Of a DNA stretch of 64,000 nt, positions 1,056-39,168 are shown piece by piece (position 1 is the first letter of the stretch; each line of letters opens with the position of its first letter). The notes below the pieces were generated by a model that saw only the letters and a list, made by a program, of their open reading frames with translations, was not told the origin of the DNA and did not search any database. Made by a program: the position numbers and the translations under genes. Source of the stretch: an uncultured bacterium (GTDB taxonomy: Bacteria > Planctomycetota > SZUA-567 > JAKLDR01); NCBI GenBank assembly GCA_965370045.1, contig CBDUSI010000001.1, forward strand, positions 18,691 to 82,690, written 5' to 3'.

Positions 1056-1327
1056 GCGTCACCTCCTCGCAGTCCCGGCATTCTTCACAATATGCGCGCG
1101 GCGTCAAGAGGTCGGCCACGCCGCCGGAGAAGCCCGGTTTGGTCGGTTACGCCTGGCTGGCGCTGCCCTCGGCGGCGCGGACCCTCAAGCTGGCCGGCCC
1201 GGTTGCCTGCTGGCAGCCGGGTAAAATCAGAAGAATAGTCCCGGAACGCCGAGTCGCGGCGCGTAAGTCGCCCTTATGCGCGCGTTACGGCAATGTGCAC
1301 TATTCTGGCGATTTGCGCATATTCTGC

Positions 1328-1356
1328 TTGACATTCGTGGTAGTTCGGTGTATAAT
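1328..1356 (+). promoter_or_regulatory. perfect sigma70 consensus promoter: TTGACA (1328-1333), 17-nt spacer, TATAAT (1351-1356)
   Basis: Read directly as cTTGACAttcgtggtagttcggtgTATAATac. Nearly the same element recurs at 36467-36495, sharing cttgacattcg and tataataca, upstream of a paralogous gene. Confidence 0.7.
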
Positions 1357-1373
1357 ACATGCAGGTGACGATG

Positions 1374-2111: not shown

Positions 2112-2178
2112 GTTGGGAGGCGGGGGGCGTGAAGGGTGAAGAGTGAATAGCGGGGAATGGAGCGCTCTCGACTGGCTC

Positions 2179-2202
2179 CTCCAGACTCCGGACTCCAGAC
2201 TG
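2179..2202. repeat. 24-nt element of three tandem heptamers: ctccaga ctccgga ctccaga ctg
   Basis: Direct heptamer repeats read in the sequence. A 22/24-identical copy (ctccagactccagcctccagactg) lies at 37424-37447. Both copies are downstream of the paralogous MSD..ENER genes. This copy is 41 bp upstream of the -35 of the 2243 promoter. Confidence 0.6.
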
Positions 2203-2242
2203 AACAACTGGCCACTGACCACCGGCAACCGAACAGGATGTC

Positions 2243-2271
2243 TTGACATGTTGCCGTATGACCGGTAGATT
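2243..2271 (+). promoter_or_regulatory. sigma70-like promoter: TTGACA (2243-2248), 17-nt spacer, TAGATT (2266-2271)
   Basis: tcTTGACAtgttgccgtatgaccggTAGATT, followed by the RBS gaggagg and the ATG at 2299. Confidence 0.5.
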
Positions 2272-2298
2272 AGTGTAGGCGAGAGGAGGCGTGGACCG

Positions 2299-2712
2299 AT
2301 GGATGTTAAGGGAGCATATCGCGCTTTTGGACCACTCACGATTGCCATTCGCAGGCGCAAGGGCCGCTATGAAGCTCTGATCAAGGAGTTTGCCATCTGG
2401 GCGGAGGCCCACAGTCAAGTCCGGGTATGGACCGAACTGGAAAAGCTGGTGGCGGGCTACATACAGTCTCAGGCTGTTGCGCTGAGCCGCCACGATTACC
2501 GCAAGGTGCGTTTCGGCAATCCCGTTCCTCGCGAAGAGTGGGAGAAGTGGCGTCGGGGAGAAATCTACAAGACGGCCATCGAGGTCCATGTCACCCAGGC
2601 CAAGATGCCGTACAAGAAGGTCCGGCCCCTGCCCGACATCCGGGAGTTCATCAGCATTGACGAGCCCTTCGTCAGACAGCGGGATGTGCAACTGAGCCCC
2701 ATTGGGGCCTGA
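2299..2712 (+). CDS. hypothetical protein; possible HicB-like partner (antitoxin candidate) of the downstream HicA
   Basis: Complete 137-aa ORF with a strong RBS (gaggagg). Its stop is 5 nt before the hicA-like gene, so the two are probably co-transcribed. No clear DNA-binding domain can be recognised. The HicB assignment is inferred from position only. Confidence 0.45.
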   Translation: MDVKGAYRAFGPLTIAIRRRKGRYEALIKEFAIWAEAHSQVRVWTELEKLVAGYIQSQAVALSRHDYRKVRFGNPVPREEWEKWRRGEIYKTAIEVHVTQAKMPYKKVRPLPDIREFISIDEPFVRQRDVQLSPIGA

Positions 2713-2717
2713 CCCCC

Positions 2718-2954
2718 GTGCCTTCGCCCATACGGAAAGGCGCCTTCAAGCGCAAGCTGCGCCGCCTGGGCTGCACCCTGACCAAAGAACGGGGGAAGGG
2801 AAGTCATTTCTGCGCCGAGCGTGTTCTTGAGGACGGCACGGTGCGGACCTACTACTTCCCTACGGTTCACGGCCGCCATGTCAAGGCGGAGTACGTAAAA
2901 TACGGCGTGATTGCGGCCCTGGGGTTCACCCGAAAAGACTGGAACAACGCTTGA
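2718..2954 (+). CDS. hicA: HicA-family (YcfA-like) mRNA interferase toxin
   Basis: 78 aa. KRKLRRLGCTLTKERGKGSHFCAE matches the HicA/YcfA dsRBD-like core with the conserved G-S-H. Size and basic composition are typical of the family. Confidence 0.7.
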   Translation: MPSPIRKGAFKRKLRRLGCTLTKERGKGSHFCAERVLEDGTVRTYYFPTVHGRHVKAEYVKYGVIAALGFTRKDWNNA

Positions 2955-2983
2955 TTGACTTGCACCCTTCCAGGCGCCATACT
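2955..2983 (+). promoter_or_regulatory. candidate promoter TTGACT-N17-CATACT upstream of the lipoprotein gene
   Basis: ttgaTTGACTtgcacccttccaggcgcCATACT, about 130 nt upstream of the ATG at 3112. A 10-bp tandem repeat ccggattccg x2 (3038-3057) lies in the leader. Confidence 0.3.
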
Positions 2984-3111
2984 GGATGGGCAGAAATGGG
3001 AGCACCGTGAGGGCTGCGGGAAATGGGTGAACTGTCCCCGGATTCCGCCGGATTCCGAATTGTGGGAACCTTCCGGAGTGCTGAGCGTCTAAAGACAGGG
3101 GAGGGACTACT

Positions 3112-4536
3112 ATGACAATGAAGACCCTCGTCGTGGCCGCCAGTGCGGCACTGGCCGTTCTCTTGGCGGCTGGCTGCCAGCCTCATCCACCCGAGCCCGT
3201 CACAGCAGTACTGGCTCCGCTACCAGATCCCGGCCAGCCCTGGCCGAAAGGAGATACAACCGTTCTGGCGCGCTGCGTGAAGACGGACTTCTACGCGACC
3301 ACGACTCGCGGACAGTGGCGCTCGGAGTGGTTCTTCTACAGGCTTCACGTCATACGAACGGAGAGAGGACGCTGGCCACACTCCGAGGTGAAGCTTGTGT
3401 GGCGGAAGCGGCTTCCCCTCCCCGGCTCGAAGTGGCGCTACAAGATGGCAGCTGATCCTTTTCACCTCAGCGGTGTCTTTGCCATCGACCTGGATACCAG
3501 CAAGAGCCCGGCACAAATTGTGGGCCATGAGCGACGCAGTTGCCTCCCGCCGCACGCCAAGCTGACGCTGTCTGCGCTGCAGAAGCCGAGCAAGGTAATG
3601 CTGGACCGCATGACTGCTAAGGTCCATGAACGGGCGAGACGAGTGGGAACACGCACCGATCTGCGGATAAGGTTCGTGGAGGCAACACGCGACAGCTATG
3701 TTGTCTATCACGATTACGAAACCTTGGTGTTGGACAAGAAGTCGCTGAAGGTCAGTCCTTTCGGGGTCAAGAAATGCGCTGGTGCCTTCTGGCAGGAGGG
3801 GCCCTGGTACTGGAAGCGCACATATCCCCGCGCCAAGCTGGGCCTGAGCGGCAAGGTCGCGGACGTCCGCTGCGGACCGTGGATAGCCATCAGTTGCGGA
3901 GCGGCTACCGGCATCCTGGAAGGCGATGTCTTCGAAATACGGCACGGTGGCAAGAAGCTGGGGCGTGCTAAGGTCTCTACGGTCTGGAACAAGTTCGCGG
4001 GACTCAAGCCGTTGGACTCGATGCGCTGGAAAGCTGGTGACGATGCCGTGCTGGTTCAACTGGCGCCGAAGAAGCCGATCAACAAGACACCCTACGCAGA
4101 ACACTTGACAGGCACTTGGCGTGATGGGCAAGCTTCCTTTGACTTTAAGATTCTCAAGGGAAGGCGGCGAGGGTTCTTCAAGGCAACGATCACGATCCGC
4201 AATCTCACAGACAAGCCCCTGTTGTTCCCGACGCCGATGTTGATGCCGGCCGCCGGCGATACCAACAAGAACAACATACGGGTCTACGATGCGAAAGGCA
4301 ACAAGTTAGGATTCGGCGCCTCACATCCGCATAGTGATGGCTTAAGGCCGGTGGTCGAGATTCCGGCGCAGACCTCCAGGTCATGGAGCTTCCAGTTGAA
4401 GAAGTACTGGCCGCAGATGTCCTCGCCAGGTGTCTACGCCGTCGAGTTCTGGTACTTCTCCAATGAGAACCATCTCTTGGCTACGTGGAAGGGGCGAGTG
4501 AAGATGTACCACTTACTGATCAAGAGTGGGAACTAG
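3112..4536 (+). CDS. hypothetical lipoprotein (474 aa), noticeably lower GC than its surroundings
   Basis: Lipobox LLAAGC after an N-terminal signal peptide. RBS ggggaggg 6 nt upstream. No recognisable domain. GC is roughly 55-58% against about 70% elsewhere. Confidence 0.6.
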   Translation: MTMKTLVVAASAALAVLLAAGCQPHPPEPVTAVLAPLPDPGQPWPKGDTTVLARCVKTDFYATTTRGQWRSEWFFYRLHVIRTERGRWPHSEVKLVWRKRLPLPGSKWRYKMAADPFHLSGVFAIDLDTSKSPAQIVGHERRSCLPPHAKLTLSALQKPSKVMLDRMTAKVHERARRVGTRTDLRIRFVEATRDSYVVYHDYETLVLDKKSLKVSPFGVKKCAGAFWQEGPWYWKRTYPRAKLGLSGKVADVRCGPWIAISCGAATGILEGDVFEIRHGGKKLGRAKVSTVWNKFAGLKPLDSMRWKAGDDAVLVQLAPKKPINKTPYAEHLTGTWRDGQASFDFKILKGRRRGFFKATITIRNLTDKPLLFPTPMLMPAAGDTNKNNIRVYDAKGNKLGFGASHPHSDGLRPVVEIPAQTSRSWSFQLKKYWPQMSSPGVYAVEFWYFSNENHLLATWKGRVKMYHLLIKSGN

Positions 4537-4719
4537 CGGATCGCCGATGACCGCCCCCGCCCCTTCGTGGAGACTGAAGCAATCCGGGGCCGCTGACCGA
4601 TAAGACACCCGACAGACGGGGCGGGCGGTAGGTTCCTCCCGACGGCAACTAGCAACCGGCTACCGGCTACCGGCTCAGAGCCCCTTGCGGTCCCGGCTGC
4701 GGCGGTCCTTGACCAGGCG

Positions 4720-5682
4720 TCACTCCGCCTTGTCGTTCGAAAGTGTTTCGCGCGCTTCCTCGACGTCACGCGCGATCTGCTCGACCAAGACCCGGTCGGA
4801 GCTGAAGCGCCGCTCGTCGCGCAGCTTCTTCACGAACTCCACCTCCACGGTCTGGCCGTAGAGGTCGCCGCCGCCTTCCAGCAGGTGGGTCTCGACCAGG
4901 AGATCCGGTCGCAGGCCGTCGGGGAGAGCCGGCGTGCCGGTCGGCCGGAAGCCCACGTTAGTAACTGACTTCAGCGCCGCGCCGCCTTGCACGCGCGCCC
5001 AGGAGGCGTAGACCCCCATGGGCGGGCGCACCTCGCGGAGCAGGTCCAGGTTGACGGTGGGGAAGCCCAGCTCGCGCCCGCGGCCCCGGCCGGGCACCAC
5101 CGCGCCAAGCACGCTCACCCGCCGGCCCAGCAGGCACTCGGCCAGTTCCAGATTGCCATCCTGGATGGCCCGGCGGACTCCTGAGCTGGAAACCACCTTG
5201 CCGCATTCCTCCACCGGTCCCACGTGGCGGACCTCGAAGCCCAGCCTCTTCCCGATGTCGCGCAGCTCCTCGAAACCCGCCGCCCCGCCGCGGCCCAGCC
5301 GCGCGTCGTGGCCCAGCACCAGGCCCCGGGCTTTGAAGCCCGTTGACAGGTATCGCTCGGCGAAGTCCCCGGCGCTCAACGCGGCCAGCTCGGCGCTGAA
5401 CTCCAGCTCGAGGACCAGTTCGATGCCCAGCCGGCCCATCAGCGCCGTGCGGTGCTCGGGGCTGGTCACGAGGTCGGCCTTCTCGGCCCGGCCCAACACG
5501 CTTCTCGGCGGGCGGGTGAAGGCCACCGCCGCGGGCCGAGCGCCCAACTCCCGCGCCCAGTTGACCACTTCGCCGAGCACCGCCGCGTGGCCCACGTGCA
5601 CCCCGTCGAAGGTGCCCACCGTCACCACCGTCCCGGCGTGGCGGTCGGCGGCCAGCTCCTCCAGCGAGTGGCAGACGTTCAC
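4720..5682 (-). CDS. ribF: bifunctional riboflavin kinase / FMN adenylyltransferase
   Basis: N-terminal GTFDGVHVGH nucleotidyltransferase motif plus a C-terminal riboflavin-kinase domain. GTG start 6 nt after the stop of the upstream pfkB-like gene. Confidence 0.9.
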   Translation of the reverse strand: MNVCHSLEELAADRHAGTVVTVGTFDGVHVGHAAVLGEVVNWARELGARPAAVAFTRPPRSVLGRAEKADLVTSPEHRTALMGRLGIELVLELEFSAELAALSAGDFAERYLSTGFKARGLVLGHDARLGRGGAAGFEELRDIGKRLGFEVRHVGPVEECGKVVSSSGVRRAIQDGNLELAECLLGRRVSVLGAVVPGRGRGRELGFPTVNLDLLREVRPPMGVYASWARVQGGAALKSVTNVGFRPTGTPALPDGLRPDLLVETHLLEGGGDLYGQTVEVEFVKKLRDERRFSSDRVLVEQIARDVEEARETLSNDKAE

Positions 5683-26062: not shown

Positions 26063-27697
26063 CTACTTAGAGTGCTTCTTGGCCAGCTCATCGGCGCGGG
26101 CCTGGAGCGTGGCGGCCAGCTTGGCCTTGCCGTCGGCCTTGGCCTTGGCGGCCAGCCCGGCCAGCTTCTTGGCGAACTGGGCGCCCTGGCCGGCCTTGAG
26201 GTACAGCTTCTCGGCCTTCTTCCAGGCGCCGGAATCCAAGTCCAGGTGGGAAGCGACCAGGTAGTACGTGGAGGCGTCCACCAGGTCGGCGGGCTCGGTC
26301 GCGAACTTCTCGAGCAGCTCGCCGATGCGCAGCACGGCGGCGGCCGCGTCCTTCCCGCGCGAGCCGTCGGCGGTCCTCATGGTAATCGCCGCGTAGTAGT
26401 AGGGCAGGGCGGCCTCGGCGCGCCCCCGGGCGGTCTTGCCCGCGGCCTTCTCCAGCGCCTGGGCCTTGGCGAAGGCGGCTCCGGGAGCGGCCACGTCGCC
26501 GACCTTGACGGACACGAACTTCCTGATGGGAACGACCGCCGGCTTCTTGGGCTCAGGCTTTTTCGGTTCGGGCTTCTTGGGTTCCGGCTTCTTCGGCTCG
26601 GGCTTCTTGACCGCCTTGGCCTTGTACTTCTCGACCTTGGCGATCATCGCCGCGGCTTTCCGGTCGTAGCCGGTGCCCGCGCCGGACTTCTTGGCCACGC
26701 CGAAGGCCTTGATGGCCGCGTCGTAGTCCTTGGGATTCTTCTTGTAGTCGGCCAGCGCCATCTCGTAGAGCGCCCGGGCATTGGCGGTCTTGGCACGCTT
26801 GGCCGCGGCGGCCTTGAGTACCTTGAGCTTGGCGATCATCTTGTCAGCGCTCTTCTCGTACCTGGTGCCGGCCGCGGCCTTCTTGACCTCCTGGTAGCGC
26901 ACGATGGCCGCGTCGTAGTTCTTGCGATCGGCCTTCCAGGCTTTCTCCGCCGCGACCAACATCCCCTTGGCCTGACGGGCCTTGGCCACCGCGGAGTCGA
27001 CCTTCTTGGGCTCCGGCTTCTTGGGTTCCGGTTTCTTGGGCTCGGGCTTTTTCGGCTCGGGCTTCTTGGGCTCCGGCTTCTTGACCGCCTTGGCCTTGTA
27101 CCTCTCGACCTTGGCGATCATCGCCGCGGCTTTCCGGTCGTAGCCGGTGCCCGCGCCGGACTTCTTGGCCACGCCGAAGGCCTTGATGGCCGCGTCGTAG
27201 TCCTTGGGATTCTTCTTGTAGTCGGCCAGCGCCATCTCGTAGAGCGCCCGGGCATTGGCGGTCTTGGCACGCTTGGCCGCGGCGGCCTTGAGTACCTTGA
27301 GCTTGGCGATCATCTTGTCAGCGCTCTTCTCGTACCTGGTGCCGGCCGCGGCCTTCTTGACCTCCTGGTAGCGCACGATGGCCGCGTCGTAGTTCTTGCG
27401 ATCGGCCTTCCAGGCTTTCTCCGCCGCGACCAGCATCGCCCTGGCCTGACGCGCCTTGGCCACCGCGGGGTCGACCTTCTTGGGCTCGGGTTTCTTGGGT
27501 TCCGGTTTCTTCGGTTCCGGCTTCTTCGGCTCGGGCTTCTTGACCGCGGGAAGCGGCAGCTTGGTCCCATCGGCCGGACAGTACTTGGTGCCGTCCTTGA
27601 GCTTCCGCTTGCAGGTAGGACACTCCACCGCAAGGGCCAGCGCGGCGGTCAGGAAAACCGCAGCGACGGCGATAATCGAGGCCTTGATAAGACGCAT
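26063..27697 (-). CDS. membrane-anchored TPR-like repeat protein with (KKPEP)n linkers and an internal 158-aa tandem duplication
   Basis: ATG 27697 with RBS gggagg. N-terminal TM anchor, CPTC..YCP zinc-ribbon-like segment, then two near-identical 158-aa units separated by KKPEPKKPEP stretches, then a TPR-like C-terminal domain. The track ORF extends to 28666, but that part is antisense to the heparinase gene. Confidence 0.65.
   Translation of the reverse strand: MRLIKASIIAVAAVFLTAALALAVECPTCKRKLKDGTKYCPADGTKLPLPAVKKPEPKKPEPKKPEPKKPEPKKVDPAVAKARQARAMLVAAEKAWKADRKNYDAAIVRYQEVKKAAAGTRYEKSADKMIAKLKVLKAAAAKRAKTANARALYEMALADYKKNPKDYDAAIKAFGVAKKSGAGTGYDRKAAAMIAKVERYKAKAVKKPEPKKPEPKKPEPKKPEPKKPEPKKVDSAVAKARQAKGMLVAAEKAWKADRKNYDAAIVRYQEVKKAAAGTRYEKSADKMIAKLKVLKAAAAKRAKTANARALYEMALADYKKNPKDYDAAIKAFGVAKKSGAGTGYDRKAAAMIAKVEKYKAKAVKKPEPKKPEPKKPEPKKPEPKKPAVVPIRKFVSVKVGDVAAPGAAFAKAQALEKAAGKTARGRAEAALPYYYAAITMRTADGSRGKDAAAAVLRIGELLEKFATEPADLVDASTYYLVASHLDLDSGAWKKAEKLYLKAGQGAQFAKKLAGLAAKAKADGKAKLAATLQARADELAKKHSK
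26530..27555. repeat. tandem direct duplication, period 474 bp, copies about 98% identical (within a coding region)
   Basis: Unit starting at 26606 (cttgaccgccttggccttgtacttctcgacc...) repeats at 27080 with only a few substitutions. The units are flanked by ggcttcttgggytccggyttctt (KKPEP-encoding) short repeats. Confidence 0.85.
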
Positions 27698-27850
27698 CGC
27701 ATTTCCTCCCAAAGAGCTGCAAATCGCGGCCCGCCGGACCGCTCCAGACCCCTCGGCGGCGGCCGCTTGGACCCACGAATATCTCCGTAACAGCGCTTCG
27801 GTCAAGGGGAAAAGGGCTGCTTGCGTCGGGCGCAGGGCGGGCGATAATCG

Positions 27851-29932
27851 GTGCCTCAGGAGAGACCGTTCATGACCAACTACGGCAGGCTCTTCGCCGG
27901 TCCGGGCCGGGATCGCCGGGTCCACGGGCGCTTCGTGGTCGACTGGCGCGACTGCGCCGACTCGGACTTCGTGCGTGCGCTTGGCCCGCTCTCGAACAGG
28001 TTGAAAAGGGCCGGGAAGCTGTGGGACTCGGACCGCGAGACGGCTCGCCTCCTGGTGGTCGAGCACTTCCTGAAGCGGGCGGCGCCCAAGTGGGCTTTCG
28101 ATTATCGCCGGAAGCGCGCGCGCGTCCTGGCCAGCCGCAACTTCTTCTTCGACGAATCCGTGGACCTGGCCAGGGCCCGCCGGGCGCTCGCCTACGAGTT
28201 CTACGACTACAACGAGACCGGCAGCTACCTCAAGCTGACCCCCACAGTGAACTGGGACCGGTCCCGCTGCCGCCAATTGGGCTCGGCCGGCTGGCTGACC
28301 ATGGGCTTCGGTTACTGGGCGCTCTTCCCCGCGGCGGGCTACGCGATAACCCGGGACCACCGCTACGCGGAAGTCTTCGCGAACTGCTGGCGGCGCTGGT
28401 TCGGAGTCTTTCCCACCCGGGCCACCGACACGGGGCTCGACGGCTTCTTCGCCTTCAACACCCTGGACCCCGCGTGCCTGGACGGCTGCATGCACACCGG
28501 CCGGCGCGCGCTGGTGATGATCGACGTCCTCTACTCGGGCCTGCTGGCCGCCCTCGAGGCTGACCTGGCCTTCGAGGTGCTCAAGTACCTGTGGTTCGTG
28601 GCCTCGCTCTTCCGCCGGGCATTCGAGGCCCGCGGCCGGCGGTCGGCTTTCGGGCCCGGTAACCACAATCTATTCGACCGGGGCACGGTGCCCTTCTCGC
28701 TGGGGACGGTCTTCCCGGAGTTCGACTGCGCCAACTTCCTGCGCGGAAAGGGCCGCGAGGTGCTCCGCAGGCACGCCGCCGACCCCCGGCGCGGGGCGAT
28801 CCGCCCCGACGGGACCAGCTGGGAGCACAGCGCGCGCTACGCGTGGTACGCGGCGGGAATGCTCCGCCAGCCGCTGGAACTGGCCCGGCTCAACCGCCGG
28901 GCGCTCTTCTCCAAACGTGAAGAACGGCGCGTCGCCGAATTCCTGGAGTCCTTCGCGGACCTCACCGCCCCGGACGGCGGGATGCTCCCCTACGGCGACT
29001 GCCAACCGCCGCGCGCCGGCTGCCACCTGGAGCTGGCCCGCTCGGTGCTGGCCGGCTCGCGCGCCGAGAAGACCGCCAGGAAGCTCAAGGTCGCGACGCG
29101 CGTCCACGCCCCCGCGCGTCGCGCCTCGCCCCTCTCCGGGGAGACGCGCGGCTCGCACTTCTTCCCCGACAGCGGCATCCTGGTGGCCCGCAGCGGCTGG
29201 CGGCCGAGCGACTCGCTGCTCTTCGTAACCGCCGAGCCCCGCGCGAGCTACTCGGGGCACAGCCACCACGACTTCGGCTCTTTTCAGCTGTGGGCCGACG
29301 GCGTCCCGCTCTTCTATGAAGCGGCCACCTGGGCCTACCGCATCGACGAGATCGTGCCCGCCGAGCGCGGCTACTACTACTCGGCTTTTGCCCATAACAT
29401 GTTGACAATGGAGGACTACCGCCCGCGCTCGGTCTTCTTCAAGATGGGCAACGTCAATGACTGGTGGGGCGACCACGAGAACCCCCCGGTCAGGACCGAG
29501 AAACTGGTCCTGGACGGACCGCGCGGGGAAATGATCGTTTCTCACCAGGCTTTCCCGGACATGACAGTCAGGCGCCGCTACCGCTTCGACCTGCGCGAGA
29601 AGTGGCTGGAGTTTACCGACTTCGTTGACGCACGGAAAGCCACGCGGCGCACCTTTCGCCAGTGGCTGCACCTGGCCTTCGGGGCCCGGGCCCGGCTCGC
29701 GGAGGACGGCGAACTGGTTGTCAGGAACCGCGGCGTCAAGGCCCGCTGCCGCTGGAGCGCCTCGGAGCCGCCGCTGGACCTGTCCGTCGAGCCCAGCCGC
29801 GAGGTGCTCCGCGCGGCGAAGGTCTTCCGCCTGGGCCAGCCGCTGCGGGCCTGCGCCGAGAAGAGCACCCGCTCCAGGCGCCTGGAGATAGCCTGCCGGA
29901 TAGAGTGGAAGAGCTCCGCGCGCCGGCGCTGA
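27851..29932 (+). CDS. heparinase II/III-like family protein (polysaccharide lyase-like)
   Basis: C-terminal GHSHHDFGSFQLWADG matches the heparinase II/III (alginate-lyase superfamily) signature. Confidence 0.65.
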   Translation: MPQERPFMTNYGRLFAGPGRDRRVHGRFVVDWRDCADSDFVRALGPLSNRLKRAGKLWDSDRETARLLVVEHFLKRAAPKWAFDYRRKRARVLASRNFFFDESVDLARARRALAYEFYDYNETGSYLKLTPTVNWDRSRCRQLGSAGWLTMGFGYWALFPAAGYAITRDHRYAEVFANCWRRWFGVFPTRATDTGLDGFFAFNTLDPACLDGCMHTGRRALVMIDVLYSGLLAALEADLAFEVLKYLWFVASLFRRAFEARGRRSAFGPGNHNLFDRGTVPFSLGTVFPEFDCANFLRGKGREVLRRHAADPRRGAIRPDGTSWEHSARYAWYAAGMLRQPLELARLNRRALFSKREERRVAEFLESFADLTAPDGGMLPYGDCQPPRAGCHLELARSVLAGSRAEKTARKLKVATRVHAPARRASPLSGETRGSHFFPDSGILVARSGWRPSDSLLFVTAEPRASYSGHSHHDFGSFQLWADGVPLFYEAATWAYRIDEIVPAERGYYYSAFAHNMLTMEDYRPRSVFFKMGNVNDWWGDHENPPVRTEKLVLDGPRGEMIVSHQAFPDMTVRRRYRFDLREKWLEFTDFVDARKATRRTFRQWLHLAFGARARLAEDGELVVRNRGVKARCRWSASEPPLDLSVEPSREVLRAAKVFRLGQPLRACAEKSTRSRRLEIACRIEWKSSARRR

Positions 29933-31493: not shown

Positions 31494-33847
31494 ACCGCCG
31501 CCTCTCTGCCCTCTTCCTGGCCGCCGGGCTCTGGAGTTCCGTAGCTGGCGCCGCCGGCGCCGGCGAGAAGCCGCTCAGCGTCGCCGACGAGCAGTACCGG
31601 CTGGCCGGGGCGCTCTTCGCCCGCGGCGAGTTCGCCCGCGCCGCGGCCACCTATGCGTCTTTCGCGCGCAGGCACCGCCGGGATCCCCGCGCTGGCGAGG
31701 CCCACTTCCGCTCTGCCGAGGGCCTCTACCGCGCCGGGGAAAGCAAGAAGGCCCGCAAGGCCTTCGAGAAATGCCTGACTCTCAAGCTGCCCGCCGCGCG
31801 CCTGGCCGCCGCGCGCCTGCGCATCGGGAGCATCTCTTACGCGGCCGGCGACGCGGAGGGCGCCGCGGCGGCGCTCTCGAAAGTGGACATGAAGCGGCTG
31901 CCCGCCGAGGCCCGCCGGGCGGCGGCCTACTTCCTGGGCGCCTCTCTCCTGGAACTGGGCCGCAAGAAGGAGGCCGGACCGCATCTGGCCCAAGCGGCCG
32001 GCTCGAAGCAGGCGGCGCTGGCCGCGCCGGCGCTCCTGGAGCTGGCCCGGATGGAGAGCGAAGCCGGGCGCCGCGCGGGGGCGGCGGGGCACCTCGGCAA
32101 GCTCCTCAAGCGCTTCCCCGGCGCGCCGGAGGCGGCGGAGGCCGGCTTCCGCCTGGCCGAGATTACCCGCCTGAGGGGCAAGCCCGCCGCCGCGCTGGCG
32201 CTATACGCGGCGGTGCTCAAGCGCTCCCCGCCGGGCGAGCTCGCCGCCCGCGCGGCGCTGGGCGCGGCCTGGTGCCACCTGGCCGGGAACGACGCGCGCG
32301 GGGCGTTGAAGATGGCCTCGATGGCCGCGCGCGCGCCGAAGCTGGCCACCGAGAGCCGCTACGTGACCGGCCTGGCGCGGATGGCCGCCAAGAAGTACGC
32401 CGAGGCGGAGGCCGCCTTCGCGGGAATCCTCAAGCTCGCCCCCCGGGGGCCACGCGCCGAGTCGGCCGCCTGCCGCCTGGTCTGGTGCCGGCACCTGGCC
32501 GGCCGCGGCGCGCAGGTGGGGCCCGCCGCGCGCGAGTTCCGGGCGCGCTTCCCCAAGAGCAAGCTGGCCGGCGAGGTGGCCCACGTCGAGGGCCTGGCCG
32601 CCGCGGCGGGCGGTGACGTCGAGGGCGCGCTCGCGGCCCTGGACAAGGCCGCCGCCGACCCCAAGAGCCGCTACGCCGCCGAGAGCGCCTACCGCGCCGC
32701 GCTGCTGTGCTCCGAGAAGGGCCGCCCCAAACAGGCCCGGGCGCGGCTGGAGCGCCTGGTGCGCCTCCATGCCAAGCACCGCCTGGCCGACGCCGCGCTG
32801 GTCCGGCTCGGCGAACTGGCCCTGGGCGCCGGCGACGCCAAGGGCGCCGCCAAACACTTCGACACGCACCTGGCCAGCTTCCCGGCCAGCAAGCTGCGCC
32901 CGGCGGCGCTGCTGGGCCGGGCCCTGGCCGCGGCCGCTGCCAAGGACTGGACCGGCTTCCAGCAGCGCTGCGCTCAACTGGCCAGAGCGCGTCCCGGCGA
33001 TCCGGCCGGCGTGGAGGCCAGCTACTGGCTGGCCTGGAACTACGAGCGGCTCAAGACCTACGACCAGGCGACGGCGGCCTACGTCCGCCTGATTGCCAAG
33101 TACCGCAAGCCACCGCTGGTCTACGAGTTCAAGTTCCGGCTGTCCTGCGCGTACTACCTCAACGGCAACTACCCCAAGGCCGCCGAGGGCTTCCTGGCGC
33201 TGGCCCGCTCGGGCAAGCGCCGGCTGCCCGCCGAGGGGCTGCTGTGGCTGGGCCAGTACCTGGGCGGCCAGGGCCGCGACAAGGAGGCCGCCGAGGTCTA
33301 TGCCCTGGCGGCGGGCTCCAAGGATCCGGCCACCCGCGCCGAGGCCCTGCTGGCCCTGGGCCACCAGGCCCTGCGCGGGGGACGGGCCGCCGGGGCAGTG
33401 GTCCTTTACCGCAAGCTCCTGGCCGAGATTCCCAAGTCCGTGCGCGCCGACGACGCCCGGCTGGGCCTGGTCCGCGCGCTGCGCGAGTCGGGCAAGGCCG
33501 CCGAGGCCCGCAAGATCGCGGCTGGCCTGGTGACCTCGAAGAACGAGCGGCTGCGCCTGGCGGCCCGTGGCGAGCTGGCCCTGGCGGACCTGGCCGTCGG
33601 GAAGGCCGCCGAGGCCGTGGCGGGCCTGGCCCCCCTGGCGACGCTGTACGACGATTCGGAGCTGGTGCCCCGCTGGCTGGCTGGCCTGGCCGCGGCCGAG
33701 GAGAAGCTCAAGAGGAAAGCGGCGGCGACCAGGTGGTACCGGGAACTCATCACCCGCTACCCGGCCAGCCGCGAGGCCAAGGCCGCGTCGGCCAAAACCA
33801 AGATCCCCCTGCCCGAGCCGTCGTCCAAGACCGGGGAGAAGTTCTAA
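31490..33847 (+). CDS. secreted tetratricopeptide-repeat protein (785 aa)
   Basis: Signal peptide, then many Ala/Leu-rich TPR-like units. Start overlaps the exbD stop (TTGA). Stop overlaps the ribE start (TAATG). Confidence 0.7.
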   Translation: MNRRLSALFLAAGLWSSVAGAAGAGEKPLSVADEQYRLAGALFARGEFARAAATYASFARRHRRDPRAGEAHFRSAEGLYRAGESKKARKAFEKCLTLKLPAARLAAARLRIGSISYAAGDAEGAAAALSKVDMKRLPAEARRAAAYFLGASLLELGRKKEAGPHLAQAAGSKQAALAAPALLELARMESEAGRRAGAAGHLGKLLKRFPGAPEAAEAGFRLAEITRLRGKPAAALALYAAVLKRSPPGELAARAALGAAWCHLAGNDARGALKMASMAARAPKLATESRYVTGLARMAAKKYAEAEAAFAGILKLAPRGPRAESAACRLVWCRHLAGRGAQVGPAAREFRARFPKSKLAGEVAHVEGLAAAAGGDVEGALAALDKAAADPKSRYAAESAYRAALLCSEKGRPKQARARLERLVRLHAKHRLADAALVRLGELALGAGDAKGAAKHFDTHLASFPASKLRPAALLGRALAAAAAKDWTGFQQRCAQLARARPGDPAGVEASYWLAWNYERLKTYDQATAAYVRLIAKYRKPPLVYEFKFRLSCAYYLNGNYPKAAEGFLALARSGKRRLPAEGLLWLGQYLGGQGRDKEAAEVYALAAGSKDPATRAEALLALGHQALRGGRAAGAVVLYRKLLAEIPKSVRADDARLGLVRALRESGKAAEARKIAAGLVTSKNERLRLAARGELALADLAVGKAAEAVAGLAPLATLYDDSELVPRWLAGLAAAEEKLKRKAAATRWYRELITRYPASREAKAASAKTKIPLPEPSSKTGEKF

Positions 33848-34488
33848 TGTTCACCGGGATAATCGAGGCCACCGGCAAGCTGCTCGGCGTCGAGAAGCGC
33901 GGCGGCGGCTTCCGCCTGAGCGCGGAACTCGGTCGCCTGGCCGAAGGCACCGCGGTCGGCGACAGCATCGCGGTCTCCGGCCCGTGCCTGACTGTCTCCC
34001 GGCTCGAAGGCTCGGTCGCCGGGTTCGACGCCGTATTCGAAACCGCGGAGCGCACCACCATTCCGTCCTGGCGCGCGGGCCGCGAGCTTAACATCGAGAG
34101 GGCCCTGGCCCTCGGCGCGCGGCTGGGTGGCCACGTAGTCACCGGGCACATCGACGGCCGCGCCCGGGTCCTCAACGTGAAGGAAGTCGGCGACGGTCGG
34201 GAGGTCGACTTCTCGATCCCCGCCGGCTGCGAGCGGCTGGTCGCCGGGAAGGGCTCGGTGGCGCTGGACGGCGCCAGCCTGACCGTCGCGCGGCTCTTGA
34301 GTGACAACAGCTTCCGCGTCGCGCTGGTGCCCCATACTCTGGGGAGCACCACGCTGCGCGGACTCAGGTCCGGCGACGAGGTCAACTTCGAGGCGGACAT
34401 AATGGCCCGCTACGCGGCGCGCCTCCTGGGCAAGGACTTCGGCGGCGGACTCACCGAGGACCAGCTCCGCGAAGCCGGGTTCATGTAG
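33847..34488 (+). CDS. ribE: riboflavin synthase alpha subunit
   Basis: MFTGIIEATG N-terminus and duplicated lumazine-binding halves. 214 aa. Confidence 0.9.
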   Translation: MFTGIIEATGKLLGVEKRGGGFRLSAELGRLAEGTAVGDSIAVSGPCLTVSRLEGSVAGFDAVFETAERTTIPSWRAGRELNIERALALGARLGGHVVTGHIDGRARVLNVKEVGDGREVDFSIPAGCERLVAGKGSVALDGASLTVARLLSDNSFRVALVPHTLGSTTLRGLRSGDEVNFEADIMARYAARLLGKDFGGGLTEDQLREAGFM

Positions 34489-34597
34489 GGAAGAGTCCCC
34501 GTGCGCTGGCGTCGGCAGTCCCGGGAAGGCTGGCGGGTGCCGGTGAAGAAATGTCGGATACAAGGAACTCTTCCTCCCGCTGGAAACGGAGGCATAG

Positions 34598-36295
34598 GTG
34601 TCAAACCTGACGCGCGACATAGGATCGGAAGACCTGAAGATCCTCGATGTTGTCAATCTGCTCAGAGAAGACAAATATCTGATCCCAACGTTTCAGCGGG
34701 ACTTTGTCTGGGATGCTCAGAGCATCAAGAAGCTCTGGGACAGCATGTTTCGCTTCTATCCTATCGGCAGCTTGCTCTACTGGGAGACCGACACCTACCT
34801 GCACACACACCGCAGACTGGGTGGCTTTGAGTTCCCGCACGACGAAGATACGGTGCGCAAGTTCAAGGAATGGAAGTACATCCTTGATGGTCAGCAACGG
34901 GCCACCTCGATTCTCGTCTCTATGCTTGGCGGCAAGGGGCGAGTAGAAGACGAAGAGAATTTCGACTATACGCTCTTCTTCGACGCGACAAAGGCGGAGT
35001 TCTTCTTCCCCACCGAGTTGGAAACGCGCAAGAGGGCCGTGCCTGACGAACGTTTTCTCGTCCGGGTCCGCGATGTACCCGAATGGAAATTCACCTTCTA
35101 CAAGGACATATCGAGCGCCGAGGGTTTCAACGATGAGATTGAGCACAACCTCAACCAAATTCAGCGTATGTTCACCGACTACAAGTTATCAGTCATTCGG
35201 ATCAAGGGCGTGGCGGTCAGTGAGGTCTGCGAGATTTTCGAGCGAATCAACCAAGAAGGGAAGAAACTCCATCCAGTGGACATCGTTGTCGCACGCACGT
35301 ATAGAAACGAGCAGGACGGGAAGCCCGGTTTCTATCTGAGAGACCGCCTGCAGGGGCTAAAGGACATCTTGATCGAAAACGGTAGCCGCTGGCAGGAAAT
35401 GGACGATCTTAGCATCATTCAAATGGTGGCTGTTTGCTTGCGAAAGCGGCATACTGAGGTACGCAATCCTTTCGGGATCACGCCCGCCGCCTTGGACAAC
35501 TTGACGACCCGCCACTTCGAAGAGAACTGGGAGACATGCCAGAAGACGATTCTGGAGACCCTCAAATTCCTCATGGACCAGAAGATTCTCGGTCCGTCAA
35601 TGATGCCCTTTACCTATCTAGCGTTGCCCGTGTGTTATTACTTCGACCGGAACAAGACGGTGAACCGGGATGTTGCCCGCCAGTGGTTCTGGTGGGCGGC
35701 ATTCGCGTTGGACCGGCTTAGTTCTTCGAGTGAGGTCTACGGTTTCTGTGAGGACTTTTTCGACCTACTGGAAAGTGGCAAGGAACCCAAGATACCGAAT
35801 CTTGTTCTATCCAAGACAAAACTCGTTCAGGCCAGTTACTACTATCGCAACGCCCTCAGCCGGGCTGTTCTTGCGTTCTTGGCCAACCAGCATCCGAAGG
35901 ACTTCAGTGACCCGCAAGCCGAGATCCTCGACAACGTGTATCTGCTCTTGTCACAGGCACCCAACTTGCATCACATCTATCCACAGAACTTCTTGAAGAA
36001 CGTTGAAGACCCGTCGGCAGATGCCGCGGCCAACAGCCTGATGAACATCTGCTATCTCCGGGCGCGGACCAACATCAAGATCAGTGATCGGAACCCGTTG
36101 GACTACTTCAAGGACTTCAAGAATGTGCGTAACTTCGAGGGAATCCTGGAGTCGCACTTGATCCCCGCTGAATTCACCGAGCGCGACAGCTTCAGACCAA
36201 GTGACTACCGCGATTTCTTGTTCGCCAGGGTGGAACTCTTCAGTCAGCGTTTGAAGCAAGCGTTACCCGATGTGAGCGTACAGATCGTCGACTGA
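34598..36295 (+). CDS. GmrSD-family type IV (modification-dependent) restriction endonuclease, DUF262 + DUF1524/HNH single polypeptide
   Basis: N-terminal DUF262 motifs IPTFQRDFVWD and ILDGQQRATSI (DGQQR). C-terminal His-Me finger region LHHIYPQNFL...N. GTG start with RBS ggagg. GC is about 50% against about 70% in flanking genes. Confidence 0.85.
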   Translation: MSNLTRDIGSEDLKILDVVNLLREDKYLIPTFQRDFVWDAQSIKKLWDSMFRFYPIGSLLYWETDTYLHTHRRLGGFEFPHDEDTVRKFKEWKYILDGQQRATSILVSMLGGKGRVEDEENFDYTLFFDATKAEFFFPTELETRKRAVPDERFLVRVRDVPEWKFTFYKDISSAEGFNDEIEHNLNQIQRMFTDYKLSVIRIKGVAVSEVCEIFERINQEGKKLHPVDIVVARTYRNEQDGKPGFYLRDRLQGLKDILIENGSRWQEMDDLSIIQMVAVCLRKRHTEVRNPFGITPAALDNLTTRHFEENWETCQKTILETLKFLMDQKILGPSMMPFTYLALPVCYYFDRNKTVNRDVARQWFWWAAFALDRLSSSSEVYGFCEDFFDLLESGKEPKIPNLVLSKTKLVQASYYYRNALSRAVLAFLANQHPKDFSDPQAEILDNVYLLLSQAPNLHHIYPQNFLKNVEDPSADAAANSLMNICYLRARTNIKISDRNPLDYFKDFKNVRNFEGILESHLIPAEFTERDSFRPSDYRDFLFARVELFSQRLKQALPDVSVQIVD

Positions 36296-36466
36296 GCCGC
36301 CGGAATTCCGCGCCCGGAAGTCAAGACTTGCCTCAGTTGCCGGTGGTCGATTGCCGGTTATCAGAAGTCGCGAGCGTACGCCGGCCTCGATATCACCCTT
36401 TCGTCGCATCTAACCGACAGCCATACAGTCACTTACGCCTCATCAGCATTATTCTGTATTATCTTC

Positions 36467-36495
36467 TTGACATTCGGGGCGCTTCGCGCTATAAT
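36467..36495 (+). promoter_or_regulatory. perfect sigma70 consensus promoter: TTGACA (36467-36472), 17-nt spacer, TATAAT (36490-36495)
   Basis: tcTTGACAttcggggcgcttcgcgcTATAATacagc. Near-duplicate of the 1328-1356 promoter, with a shared upstream attctg motif. Confidence 0.7.
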
Positions 36496-36549
36496 ACAGC
36501 ATACACTGACCACTTGCGGCCCAAAGGGGCTATCTTAGGGGGGAGAACC

Positions 36550-37191
36550 ATGAGCGACAAGAACGTGGCGGAGAATGAATTGGGATTGCTGACTGAAATT
36601 GCATTGCTTCGGGCGCATGGACAAAGCTGGAAGGATATCGCCAGCGAGTTGGACGTAGAAAGGCCCCGGCTGCGGGAGGTTACCCGCGCGCACGGTGCGG
36701 TCTACTGGCGGCTGTTCGAGGAGGCCCAGCACCGCGCGTCACTGGAAGCGGCGGCAATGGCGCGGGCCAAACTGGAGACGCTGCTCGAAAGCGAAAACGA
36801 GCGCGTCGCCCTGCGCGCCGCCCAGGCGCTGCTCGGCGACCAGCGCGGCAAGGAGCGCAGCGCCGTCCTGCGCGATCGGAACGACATCCTGGCCGAGAAG
36901 GTCGTGGAGCGCCAGAAGGACGCCGAAAGCTGGCGGCAATTACGTGAAGCCGAAATGACCCTGGCCGAGTACCGCCGTGATGTAGAAAGGCGCATGCGCG
37001 ACGACTCCGAACCGTCGCTCTGGCAGAAGGCTTACAGCAAGCAGTACGGCGGCCGCACTGACAACGGCGGCAGCGACATCATCGCCCTGGCCCGCGCGGC
37101 CGTCGACGAGATGACCGACGAAAACGGCCGGCTCATTGACCCATTAGAGGCCAGGCGGTTACGCGAGGAAAAAAACGGCGAAGCGTCGTAA
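36550..37191 (+). CDS. hypothetical protein, paralog B of the 1374..2111 gene; N-terminal HTH-like segment
   Basis: RBS gggggag before ATG 36550. MSDKNV... N-terminus. LTEIALLRAHGQSWKDIASELDV resembles a sigma region-4/LuxR-type HTH. ESENERVALRAAQALL matches SENERIALEAARTLL in paralog A. Highly charged C-terminal half. Confidence 0.6.
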   Translation: MSDKNVAENELGLLTEIALLRAHGQSWKDIASELDVERPRLREVTRAHGAVYWRLFEEAQHRASLEAAAMARAKLETLLESENERVALRAAQALLGDQRGKERSAVLRDRNDILAEKVVERQKDAESWRQLREAEMTLAEYRRDVERRMRDDSEPSLWQKAYSKQYGGRTDNGGSDIIALARAAVDEMTDENGRLIDPLEARRLREEKNGEAS

Positions 37192-37423
37192 GTCACGGGC
37201 TTTCAGGGGCGCAGGTCATGACAAAACGGGAGATTCCGAACCACGGAGGACACGGAGGAGAAGAGACGGTTGCCACTCGGAGCGGCGCCTTCAGGTGCCC
37301 GACGAGGGGCAATTCACTTGCCAGAACCACGCCAGGGAGGGCGGAACCTCGACGGTTTGACACGAGGTCAAAAGACATCGTTTGGGGAAGGTAAGCCGAA
37401 GGAGAGAGCCCGGGACCAAGAGA

Positions 37424-37447
37424 CTCCAGACTCCAGCCTCCAGACTG
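37424..37447. repeat. 24-nt heptamer-repeat element, second copy: ctccaga ctccagc ctccaga ctg
   Basis: 22/24 identical to 2179-2202. Followed by a second small tandem repeat gttgaaaag x2 (37461-37478). Confidence 0.6.
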
Positions 37448-37496
37448 TGCCCCTTGGCGTCTTGGCGGTTGAAAAGTTGAAAAGCGGCCCGGCGGT

Positions 37497-39137
37497 TCAC
37501 TTCCAACTGGGGAAGAGCCATTCTCCGGGGCTGACCTTGAGGGGCTTGGCCTTGCCGTTGGCGATATCAATAATGAAAGGCCGGGGGTCCGGGCCGGGCC
37601 GCGGGATCATCATTATCAGCCTCTTGCCGCGGGGCGAGAGCGTCGGGTGGTTGGCGCCTTTGAGGCCGTCGCCGAGCTTTTTCACGTCCTTGCCGGCCAG
37701 GTTGCAGGTCTTCCAGAGGGCGTCGGCGTCCAGGAAGAGGATGCGCCGGCCGCCCCGCAGGGCCAGCGGCCGGGAACCCTTGCGGACCTCGGTGAGCTTG
37801 CCGGCGAGGTCCATGCGGCACACGAAGCTGCTGGCGGGCCTGAGGACGTCGACCATCTTGCGCACGGTCATCAGCAAGCTCTTGCCGTCCGCCGACCAGG
37901 ATATGTGCGCGCAGTCCAGCAGCCTGCCCAGCTTGCGAGCGGCGCCGGTCTTCACGTCAACCAGGCACACCTGGGCTTCGGCCGGCTTCTCGCTCATGTC
38001 CTTGTGGAACACGGCCAGTGTCTTCCCGTCGGGCGAGAGCGTCGGGAACATGCTGAACCCGGTGGCCAGCAGCTTGCCGCCCAGTTGCCGGTTGGCGCCG
38101 GTGGAGAGGTCGATCTCGTATATGCCGACGACGCCCTGCACGGTGTTGGTCCCGCTGACGGCCACTTTCTTGCGGCCCTTGAGGAAACATCCGGTGAGCG
38201 ACACCGCGCCCCGGAAGGGCACCCGCCGGTAGCGGCCGGTTTTGACGTTCAGCAGGCAGTTGTCCGGTTCGGTGCGGCCGGCGGCGTGGGCGATCAGCAG
38301 CAAGTCAGTGAGCTTGCCCCTGGTGGGGTCGCTGGTATGGTCAGGCCAGTCGCCCTCCGGAATCGCGAAGTGCTTGCCGTCGACCTTCCCGAGCCACTTG
38401 AAGTCCTCTATCCTGGTGCGCATCCGCCGGGTGCCGTGCTCGACCAGCAGTCCGCTGGCCAGGTCCACCCTGGTGGAGGTCCCTTTCTCGAGGAGCTCCT
38501 TCATCGCCGCAAGCTGTTCCTTGACGCCGGGCCGCTTGAGGAACTTGGGGTCCCGCTTGGCCAGGGTCTTCGCCTGGCGGATCATGTTGGCGAGCTGGCT
38601 GCGCGCCGGCTCGCGCACCGGCGTGCGGTAGGTGGCGACGCCCTTCTCGGTCTTCTCGTACTTGCCCAGCGCGCCGGGCGTCGGGTCAGTGACCACCAGA
38701 AGTTCGGCGCGGAACAGGTAGAGGTACATGGTGGTCTCTGTCAGGGGCGCCTCGAATGGCCGGTACTTGCCACGCCCCCCGCGCCCGGCCCGCTGGGTGA
38801 CGTACCAGGCGCCGTCGCGCTCCACGATGCGCAGTTTCTCGGCGCTCTTGCGCTCACCCGCGCCTCGCTCCGACACGATGAAGCGGCTCTTGTCCCTGGT
38901 GCTGAGCGTTTCGACAACGACCTGCCCGGGCCGCTCGCGCGTGAAGACCGCCTTCCAGGAGGCGGGCGTGGTTTGGAGCTTCGCCGCGGTGCGCTTCCCG
39001 GCGGCCACCACTTCGGCGGGATCGGGCGGCTTGGGCTTGGCCGCACCGCCCTCTCCCGCGGCCGCGACGGGCGGACCGGCCAGCGCCAGACAGGCGACCA
39101 GCCAGGCTTGGCGTACCCGCGGCAGTTTCGGTCGCAT
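37497..39137 (-). CDS. secreted protein with a C-terminal PD40/TolB-like beta-propeller
   Basis: Signal peptide MRPKLPRVRQAWLVACLALAG. Repeated SPDGK/SPRGK motifs. Start ATG 39137 preferred over the GTG at 39161. Confidence 0.65.
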   Translation of the reverse strand: MRPKLPRVRQAWLVACLALAGPPVAAAGEGGAAKPKPPDPAEVVAAGKRTAAKLQTTPASWKAVFTRERPGQVVVETLSTRDKSRFIVSERGAGERKSAEKLRIVERDGAWYVTQRAGRGGRGKYRPFEAPLTETTMYLYLFRAELLVVTDPTPGALGKYEKTEKGVATYRTPVREPARSQLANMIRQAKTLAKRDPKFLKRPGVKEQLAAMKELLEKGTSTRVDLASGLLVEHGTRRMRTRIEDFKWLGKVDGKHFAIPEGDWPDHTSDPTRGKLTDLLLIAHAAGRTEPDNCLLNVKTGRYRRVPFRGAVSLTGCFLKGRKKVAVSGTNTVQGVVGIYEIDLSTGANRQLGGKLLATGFSMFPTLSPDGKTLAVFHKDMSEKPAEAQVCLVDVKTGAARKLGRLLDCAHISWSADGKSLLMTVRKMVDVLRPASSFVCRMDLAGKLTEVRKGSRPLALRGGRRILFLDADALWKTCNLAGKDVKKLGDGLKGANHPTLSPRGKRLIMMIPRPGPDPRPFIIDIANGKAKPLKVSPGEWLFPSWK

Positions 39138-39168
39138 GGCGACGCGCGCCCTGGCGCCCACGGGCTCT

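Follow-up and report, generated by a model that had tools for sequence, protein, structure and literature searches.

Restriction enzymes of the GmrSD group are recognised by a set of N-terminal motifs (QR, (I/V)DGQQR and FxxxN) and a C-terminal nuclease signature, as defined by Machnicka et al. 2015 (PMC4619093). BrxU, which cuts a range of modified DNAs (PMC8565348), corresponds to the HEC-05 system of Payne et al. (10.1101/2024.01.29.577857), from whom its RLFDS motif was also taken. In that work, mutation of DGQQR or of (D/E)H abolished defence by BrxU and by HEC-06. Here, we describe a gene for a 565-amino acid (aa) protein with a DUF262 domain (the DUF262 gene and DUF262 protein below) in a 64,000-nucleotide (nt) stretch of contig CBDUSI010000001.1 from an uncultured, high-GC Planctomycete. 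This whole stretch is referred to as the window and all positions are counted from its first letter, unless another locus is named. The gene lies in the interval between ribE and a beta-propeller gene, was acquired horizontally, and probably encodes a stand-alone, single-chain type IV (modification-dependent) restriction enzyme of the GmrSD/BrxU family.

The protein can be assigned to this family by its N-terminal and middle parts. Pfam PF03235 (GmrSD_N/DUF262) matched residues 21-233 with 101.4 bits against a cut-off of 33.2 (E value 9.4e-29), and it was matched by all 28 members of the family alignment (A1). The DGQQR and FQRDFVWD motifs, which a previous reading made from the letters alone (the sequence-only reading) had picked out, were located at 34886-34900 and 34691-34714, respectively, together with QR (Q33-R34, 34694-34699), KLWDS (residues 45-49, 34730-34744) and FERIN (F214-ERI-N218, 35237-35251). 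Leucine replaces the I/V of the (I/V)DGQQR consensus (L96-DGQQR101), and the residues of QR, KLWDS, DGQQR and FxxxN are invariant throughout A1.

NCBIfam gave no model for the protein. The top PADLOC model was PDC-M55C (E 3e-36; residues 17-562 against profile positions 19-540 of 554), which is the sole PADLOC model to span the whole protein. HEC-05 models followed (E 7e-35 and 4e-27), limited to residues 12-357, and weaker matches were obtained to HEC-06, Orf5, NsnA and PD-T4-2_A, with SspE marginal at E 4e-3 to 5e-3; one Orf5 model, PDLC02701, matched the region of the C-terminal motifs (residues 454-509, E 2e-8). When the protein was searched as a single sequence against the Protein Data Bank (PDB), BrxU (7p9k) alone was matched (E 4e-10). 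The profile of the 28 members matched BrxU at E 1.2e-17 over positions 15-362, and the same profile aligns 'NLHHIYPQ' with BrxU 'HVDHIYPK' and SLMNICFLRAKTN with KLPNLQLLEGTIN. The AlphaFold2 (AF2) model of the protein has a mean predicted local distance difference test (pLDDT) score of 79.7, with low confidence at 69-88, 216-224 and 441-500. Foldseek searches with this model returned BrxU first (E 5.9e-14, probability 1.0, full-length alignment), then SspE (E 6.5e-4) and, weakly, ParB CTPases.

The protein is a member of a distinct, very tightly conserved clade that PADLOC models as PDC-M55C; its members are annotated in databases as DUF262/GmrSD-domain proteins, and no paper describing PDC-M55 was found in the literature. 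Approximately 1000 database relatives were obtained, and the best 120 of them are 63-100% identical over the full length, the named ones belonging to Planctomycetota, Candidatus Abyssobacteria, Phycisphaerae, Peptococcaceae, Thermotogota and Methanocellales. The two nearest are P0002 (91%; a Planctomycetota metagenome-assembled genome, locus of 49% GC) and P0003 (85%; Abyssobacteria). A1 covers several bacterial phyla and a Methanocellales archaeon with a mean column identity of 73% and more than 200 invariant positions, and identity between bacterial and archaeal members reaches 63-72% over the 565 aa. Codon composition follows each host (GC 0.36 to 0.58; the archaeal copy has 0.36 in a locus of 0.41). 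Since copies elsewhere have adopted host composition, the high conservation reflects constraint as well as recent spread and, judging from the alignment, conservation of this degree is unusual among defence proteins.

The genomic contexts of the homologues bear out the assignment to defence made in the sequence-only reading, as those at loci L002, L004 and L087 lie in defence islands. The L002 homologue is preceded by a mad1-like HTH_17 gene and followed by a Schlafen/AlbA_2 ATPase, an SNF2 helicase, an OLD-TOPRIM ATPase with UvrD-like helicase and a methyltransferase. At L004 a mad1-like HTH_17 gene is again found upstream, and the surroundings include Mrr_cat, SNase, an RtcR-like regulator and a type I restriction-modification system. 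These HTH_17 genes (L002 7729-7956 and L004 7716-8000; PADLOC mad1 E 4e-13 and 2e-10) directly precede the DUF262 homologue, and they may be a dedicated regulator that was not transferred to the window. The L087 homologue is embedded between HmaA (upstream) and HmaB (downstream, followed by PLD and DUF499 genes) with a 4-bp overlap, a layout that is the 'embedded GmrSD-like' situation of Payne et al. (10.1101/2024.01.29.577857). At L086 and L089 a gene for an HSDR_N-type protein of approximately 350 aa lies upstream and the remainder is not notable; Gabija-like genes also occur among the defence-type neighbours of the homologues. As the neighbours differ in all five homologues examined, the gene behaves as a self-contained defence module. 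In the window, neither a methyltransferase nor any further gene recognisable as defensive is among the genes called within 10 kb on either side of the DUF262 gene, in keeping with the single-gene system without cognate methylase that had been proposed from the letters.

The DUF262 gene is horizontally acquired, having a foreign composition, being absent at the locus in relatives and having close homologues in unrelated taxa. Its GC content is 0.529 and its GC content at third codon positions (GC3) is 0.714, against a GC3 of 0.84-0.94 (about 0.90) in core genes; the GC contents of the flanking genes are 0.75 (TPR), 0.70 (ribE), 0.68 (propeller) and 0.69 (argH). Segments of 1.7 kb elsewhere in the 64 kb have a mean GC of 0.677 (standard deviation 0.030, minimum 0.587), and the gene forms the deepest 1.7-kb trough of the window (z = -4.9), so that the low, foreign GC noted earlier holds. 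DNA similarity to the two nearest copies (L002 and L004) extends from 34588 to 36296-36297 only, that is, over the ORF (open reading frame) with 10 bp upstream and 1-2 bp downstream. The ratio of nonsynonymous to synonymous substitution rates (dN/dS, Nei-Gojobori) is 0.106 against L002 (dS 0.43) and 0.068 against L004, and the protein is therefore under purifying selection. Substitutions relative to L002 show no shift toward the high GC of the host (87 vs 77), which suggests that the arrival of the gene was recent.

The ORF is intact and full length. It opens with GTG, preceded by GGAGG 7 nt upstream, and the start codon is ATG in the two nearest copies. The start is placed correctly, because all 28 aligned homologues begin alike with M(S/T/G)(N/K/S), 20 of them with MSNL. 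Within the spacer to ribE (34489-34597), RNA folding is no better than for shuffled sequence (z = -0.22) and nothing convincing past approximately 12 bp was found of the donor's upstream helix-turn-helix gene; an Rfam search of 34300-37700 gave one match at chance level. No vector for the gene was identified in plasmid, phage or IMG/VR collections. The plasmid and phage collections held only DUF262 proteins of at most 30% identity, and in IMG/VR a single relative, 34% identical, was found, whereas the promoter box described below was absent from it.

Comparison with relatives places the gene in a lineage-specific segment. A metagenome scan with ribE yielded matches of at most 49% identity, useless for synteny, and the protein-database route gave relatives of 70-86% aa identity: L091 (86%), L094 (75%) and L092 (70%), the last of which keeps the heparinase-exbB-exbD-TPR-ribE order. 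In all three, DNA similarity to the window ends at the ribE stop codon (34486-34488) and the next gene differs (a Kelch-like protein; a 99-aa protein then an isochorismatase; a 433-aa protein). A genome scan with the propeller protein yielded a single relative, L005, an uncultured Planctomycetia metagenome-assembled genome with the order p821-argH-CN-hydrolase-propeller, an argH that is 90% identical in nucleotides and a contig without ribE. Its similarity to the window stops at 37452, adjoining a heptamer array, and the right edge of the segment lies at 37447-37452. The DUF262 protein gave no tblastn match in the L091, L092, L094 and L005 loci. The segment 34489-37452 agrees with the limits of 34489-37460 that had been drawn in the sequence-only reading. 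For the insertion that the same reading had placed in this interval there was no such support: ribE stands directly next to the propeller gene in none of the four relatives' loci, and it is thus not shown that the segment simply inserted into an intact junction.

The site is a synteny breakpoint or variable spot. Beyond the shared edge, a stretch of lower GC in L005 (6120-10397) carries a BNR-like ORF, a DUF3800 protein and an MmeI-type restriction-modification enzyme. As these occupy the place that the DUF262 gene and the 213-aa gene with its module (described below) have in the window, the spot beside the propeller gene looks like one that collects defence genes in at least two lineages. No tRNA was found in the window and no integrase among the genes called within 10 kb on either side, and searches around the islet for target-site duplications and terminal inverted repeats gave only short matches at chance level.

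Several observations weigh against the reading of the DUF262 protein as a self-sufficient type IV nuclease. PF07510 (GmrSD_C/DUF1524) scored 22.6 bits against a gathering score of 23.0 over residues 408-511 (E 1e-4), and it was found at E ≤ 0.01 in only four of the 28 family members. The C-terminal segment of BrxU (including 'VDHIYPK ... NLQLLEGTIN') is not significant alone in the profile alignment, identity to BrxU is just 17-18%, and the AF2 model drops to pLDDT 51-73 in the nuclease region (441-500). The nuclease signature reads HH-N-N and not (E/D)H-N-N, with a His at the acidic position (L-H458-H459-I-Y-P-Q; LHHIYPQ at 35966-35986), and the acidic residue is essential in BrxU and Eco94GmrSD (10.1101/2024.01.29.577857, PMC4619093). 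Turning from the protein to the gene, a site scan detected no promoter-like or plus-strand terminator-like site in the ribE-DUF262 spacer, the mad1-like gene of the two closest homologues is missing in the window, and PDC-M55C is an uncharacterised candidate that is labelled as one component of a multi-gene set.

Judged by the curated Pfam threshold, the assignment of the C-terminal region to a nuclease is borderline. Its further motif residues are N483 and N492 within SLMNICYLRARTN (36035-36073) and N499-P500 at 36092-36097; the second Asn (LMN483ICYLRARTN492) stands one residue beyond its place in the canonical L(G/A)NLxLLxxxN. The NxxFxxKK motif is absent from the protein. H458, H459, N483, N492 and N499 are invariant in 28/28 aligned clade members, and because of this invariance HH-N-N looks like a conserved variant active site, not decay or a lost signature. 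Colicin E7 and E9 DNases likewise have an HH pair at the start of their HNH motif. Judged strictly as a GmrSD protein, it has the N-domain and the motifs belonging to it, lacks the canonical catalytic signature and narrowly misses the PF07510 threshold; judged strictly as BrxU/HEC-05 it falls outside, with partial model coverage (12-357) and the low identity given above. The type of protein claimed from the letters, GmrSD-like with DUF262 and DUF1524, was supported; the N-domain stood and was joined by the fold match to BrxU, and the DUF1524 part was left just below its threshold with a variant motif.

Homology to BrxU and Eco94GmrSD suggests a mechanism in which the DUF262 domain at the N terminus (QR, KLWDS, DGQQR and FxxxN) would bind and hydrolyse nucleoside triphosphates (NTPs) and control the active state, the helical middle domain would serve dimerisation, and the C-terminal His-Me finger (HHIYPQ...N...N) would cut DNA carrying a base modification that is not the host's. 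Nuclease activity, dependence on DNA modification and the modification concerned would all follow by analogy with these enzymes. The unmodified DNA of the host would be spared, so that no methyltransferase partner would be required. Having no promoter of its own and the same orientation as exbB-exbD-TPR-ribE, the gene is probably co-transcribed with this upstream operon by read-through.

The points concerning the gene's situation would also be expected of an orphaned component of a multi-gene defence system, moved without its partners and now silent, deregulated or non-functional and decaying. Such a component could be, for instance, a GmrSD-like gene whose usual place is inside Hma or type I restriction-modification systems, or one under a mad1-like helix-turn-helix regulator. 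To the multi-gene label of PDC-M55C, the mad1-like gene that L002 and L004 have and the window lacks, and the missing promoter may be added the L087 homologue between HmaA and HmaB. We consider this explanation unlikely, given that the five homologues examined all have different neighbours and the gene is thus self-contained, that the ORF is full length and keeps every family-invariant residue, and that dN/dS is 0.11. Furthermore, BrxU (HEC-05) and HEC-06 were protective when cloned alone (10.1101/2024.01.29.577857). The 213-aa neighbour of the gene matches no PADLOC model, so any PDC-M55 set would be incomplete here.

A role outside defence, in which a ParB-like NTPase of selfish or housekeeping nature, its C-terminal nuclease degenerate, is kept for some other transaction on DNA and has a conserved cellular partner, appears very improbable. 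It would account for a conservation far above that of usual defence proteins (the 73% mean column identity across phyla), for copies with host composition such as the archaeal one of GC 0.36 in a genome of 0.41, and for the non-canonical nuclease motif and the missed Pfam curated threshold. However, the distribution is patchy, with the gene absent at the site in close relatives, its neighbours elsewhere are defence genes, and the invariant H458, H459, N483, N492 and N499 fit an active His-Me site. An SspE-/DndB-like effector that senses phosphorothioate or another host mark and nicks unmarked DNA, and so is not of type IV, is scarcely credible: SspE is the second-best structural match, PADLOC gives weak SspE matches and the DUF262 fold is common to DndB and DGQHR proteins (PMC4619093), but these SspE matches are marginal and are surpassed by many orders of magnitude by those to the BrxU family, the genes called within 10 kb on either side include neither sspABCD nor dnd nor any other modification gene, and ssp genes occur in none of the homologue contexts examined.

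The preferred reading, a stand-alone type IV enzyme, concerns the DUF262 ORF only. The segment of approximately 3 kb, which had been taken as one acquired islet, is indeed absent from relatives, but it is a mosaic of the foreign DUF262 ORF and a separate lineage-specific repeat module (the p213 module), since similarity to the foreign copies covers the ORF only and the module recurs elsewhere. The clear GC trough spans only approximately 34550-36600, and the 213-aa ORF that follows is intermediate in composition (GC 0.64, GC3 0.79). The 213-aa gene, its promoter and its heptamer tail are not part of the restriction system.

The module promoter (36467-36495) is a perfect 12/12 TTGACA-17-TATAAT, and the 33-nt promoter box occurs twice in the window, where 0 occurrences are expected. 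The protein p213 is not among the recognised defence proteins and has no match in Pfam, NCBIfam, PADLOC or PHROGs; two strong homologues were found among 1.84 billion representatives, together with approximately 28 weak matches to small proteins with a common N-terminal domain of about 100 aa. Its AF2 model (pLDDT 87) is all-helical, with a small helix-turn-helix-like head and a 67-residue helix, and the best fold match, the phage protein phBC6A51 (2ao9; probability 0.99, E 0.14), gives only a hint of resemblance. One homologue, P0121 (82% identical), is encoded on scaffold L090 of the same metagenome in a different context, next to diphthamide-synthase-like, DAHP synthase, folC and moxR genes. 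Against window 36343-37390, L090 aligns over leader, promoter box, ORF and tail at 75-85% nucleotide identity, beginning within approximately 10-15 nt of the DUF262 stop codon. The L090 module (171-1535) follows the 3' end of an ORF of about 53% GC and precedes core genes of about 68-70% GC; the 51-aa ORF fragment upstream of it gave no Pfam match and no detectable homologue.

A third, far more diverged copy lies at window 1327-2201, with the same promoter box and CTCCAGA-type heptamers. Its ORF (1371-2111) encodes a protein only approximately 18% identical to p213, so that the promoter box and the heptamer tail are the parts common to both copies. The strong promoter ascribed to the 213-aa gene (36550-37191) in the sequence-only reading was found, and the word paralog used there for that gene needs correcting in view of this low identity to the 1371-2111 product; the heptamer element that was said to end the islet is present at 37421-37446 as AGACTCC x3.7 (Tandem Repeats Finder), with a second copy at 2179-2201. 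The heptamers are AGACTCC/CTCCAGA in the window and of GACTAGA type in L090. An element of approximately 120 nt (37269-37390) is 85% identical to L090 455-574, has an RNA fold z of -2.8 and may be a small-RNA element or one resembling a miniature inverted-repeat transposable element (MITE). In the window this element follows the 213-aa ORF, whereas in L090 its place is between promoter and ORF, and a duplicated stretch of N-terminal coding sequence (EEELGLLT / ENDLGLLT) is interrupted by it there.

In two of the three module copies (window and L090) the left edge lies approximately 10 nt past the stop codon of an ORF of about 53% GC and the right end abuts core genes. These two foreign-ORF/module junctions are what the idea of docking draws on, whereby a dispersed module specific to Planctomycetes, itself an undescribed docking or recombination element, would have captured the DUF262 gene at its left edge as a cassette that is ORF-precise and lacks a promoter; the MmeI-type restriction-modification gene of L005 occupies the equivalent position. 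We hold this idea to be highly doubtful. Were it true, the element would collect foreign genes, defence genes included, in these bacteria.

The features of the locus are listed in Table 1. To the left of the DUF262 ORF lie exbB, exbD, the gene of a 785-aa TPR protein and ribE; to the right, on the minus strand, lie the beta-propeller gene and then argH, with 7 bp between those two. In L005, a gene for a 327-aa carbon-nitrogen hydrolase (3367-4350), not present in the window, stands between argH and the propeller gene. A second low-GC islet, at window positions of approximately 1060-4700 (GC 0.59-0.64), is the next-deepest trough and includes, or is bordered by, the diverged copy of the module. 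Its neighbours, both on the minus strand, are a core gene (468-1055) on one side and an ORF (4720-5682) on the other, and neither its 137-aa ORF (2299-2712) nor its 474-aa lipoprotein-like ORF (3112-4536) has a Pfam or PHROG match. Elsewhere in the window, 26539-27732, within the minus-strand ORF 26063-28666, is a 474-bp tandem duplication (2.1-2.5 copies, 95% identical) that encodes two repeats of approximately 158 aa with (KKPEP)n linkers between them in a membrane-anchored protein.

Table 1. Features of the ribE-propeller interval and its two flanking genes (window coordinates)
Feature	Position	Strand	Basis or remark
Riboflavin synthase (ribE)	33847-34488		NCBIfam match, E 2e-59
109-bp spacer, ribE stop codon to DUF262 start	34489-34597	.	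Holds GGAGG ribosome-binding site
GmrSD/BrxU-like candidate type IV (modification-dependent) restriction endonuclease, 565 aa	34598-36295	+	ORF listing, Pfam, PADLOC, Foldseek
DUF262 (ParB/Srx-like NTPase) domain, N-terminal, residues 21-233	34658-35296	+	Pfam match range
DUF1524-like His-Me finger region, C-terminal, residues 408-511	35819-36130	+	Pfam match range
p213 module leader	36296-36549	+	Sigma-70-type promoter 36467-36495 within conserved 33-nt box 36466-36498
p213, 213-aa orphan protein, helix-turn-helix and long coiled coil	36550-37191	+	ORF, AF2 model
p213 module tail	37192-37452	+	Structured repeat 37269-37390, heptamer array 37421-37446
PD40/TolB-like beta-propeller protein	37497-39161	minus	

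Through this locus, a Planctomycete lineage that is uncultured and little studied gains a plausible type IV restriction gene. The locus also shows that the spot by ribE and the propeller gene is variable and that at least two related genomes have defence genes there. The clade is notable for its high conservation between bacteria and archaea and for the invariant HH in place of (D/E)H; apart from these traits the finding is a routine and fairly ordinary defence-gene annotation. The recurring junction of foreign ORF and module, seen in two cases, is the only feature with potential for something new.

Among the described systems, SspE, the phosphorothioate-sensing nicking enzyme (PDB 7DRR), shares with the DUF262 protein the architecture of a DUF262 N-domain and a C-terminal nuclease, but as the second-best fold match it is far weaker (E 6.5e-4, 11% identity); it is approximately 770 aa long and has SspABCD as partners, and ssp-like genes were not called within 10 kb on either side of the DUF262 gene. 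GmrSD proper (EcoCT596 GmrS/GmrD and the single-chain Eco94GmrSD) has in common with the DUF262 protein the N-terminal motifs QR, DGQQR and FxxxN, the C-terminal H(I/L/V)xPQ and N...N pattern, and the association with defence islands and horizontal transfer. The DUF262 protein differs from it in a PF07510 score 0.4 bits under the cut-off, the HH-N-N motif, an Asn spacing of +1 and the lack of NxxFxxKK, and the specificity for glucosylated hydroxymethylcytosine (glc-hmC) put forward in the sequence-only reading gained no support and would be borrowed from GmrSD purely by analogy.

BrxU (E. fergusonii plasmid pEFER; PDB 7P9K/7P9M) is the top solved-structure match both by profile and by fold. 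The two proteins have the same order of parts, with DUF262 followed by a helical linker and a C-terminal H-N-N motif. DGQQR is common to both, KLWDS here corresponds to RLFDS and HHIYP to DHIYP, and where BrxU has an Asp ahead of the catalytic His the DUF262 protein has a His. The window gene is placed outside BREX/Hma, after ribE at a chromosomal breakpoint. BrxU is likewise a single gene without a methylase, and the embedding in larger defence systems known from its family is also found in this clade, in the Hma system of L087.

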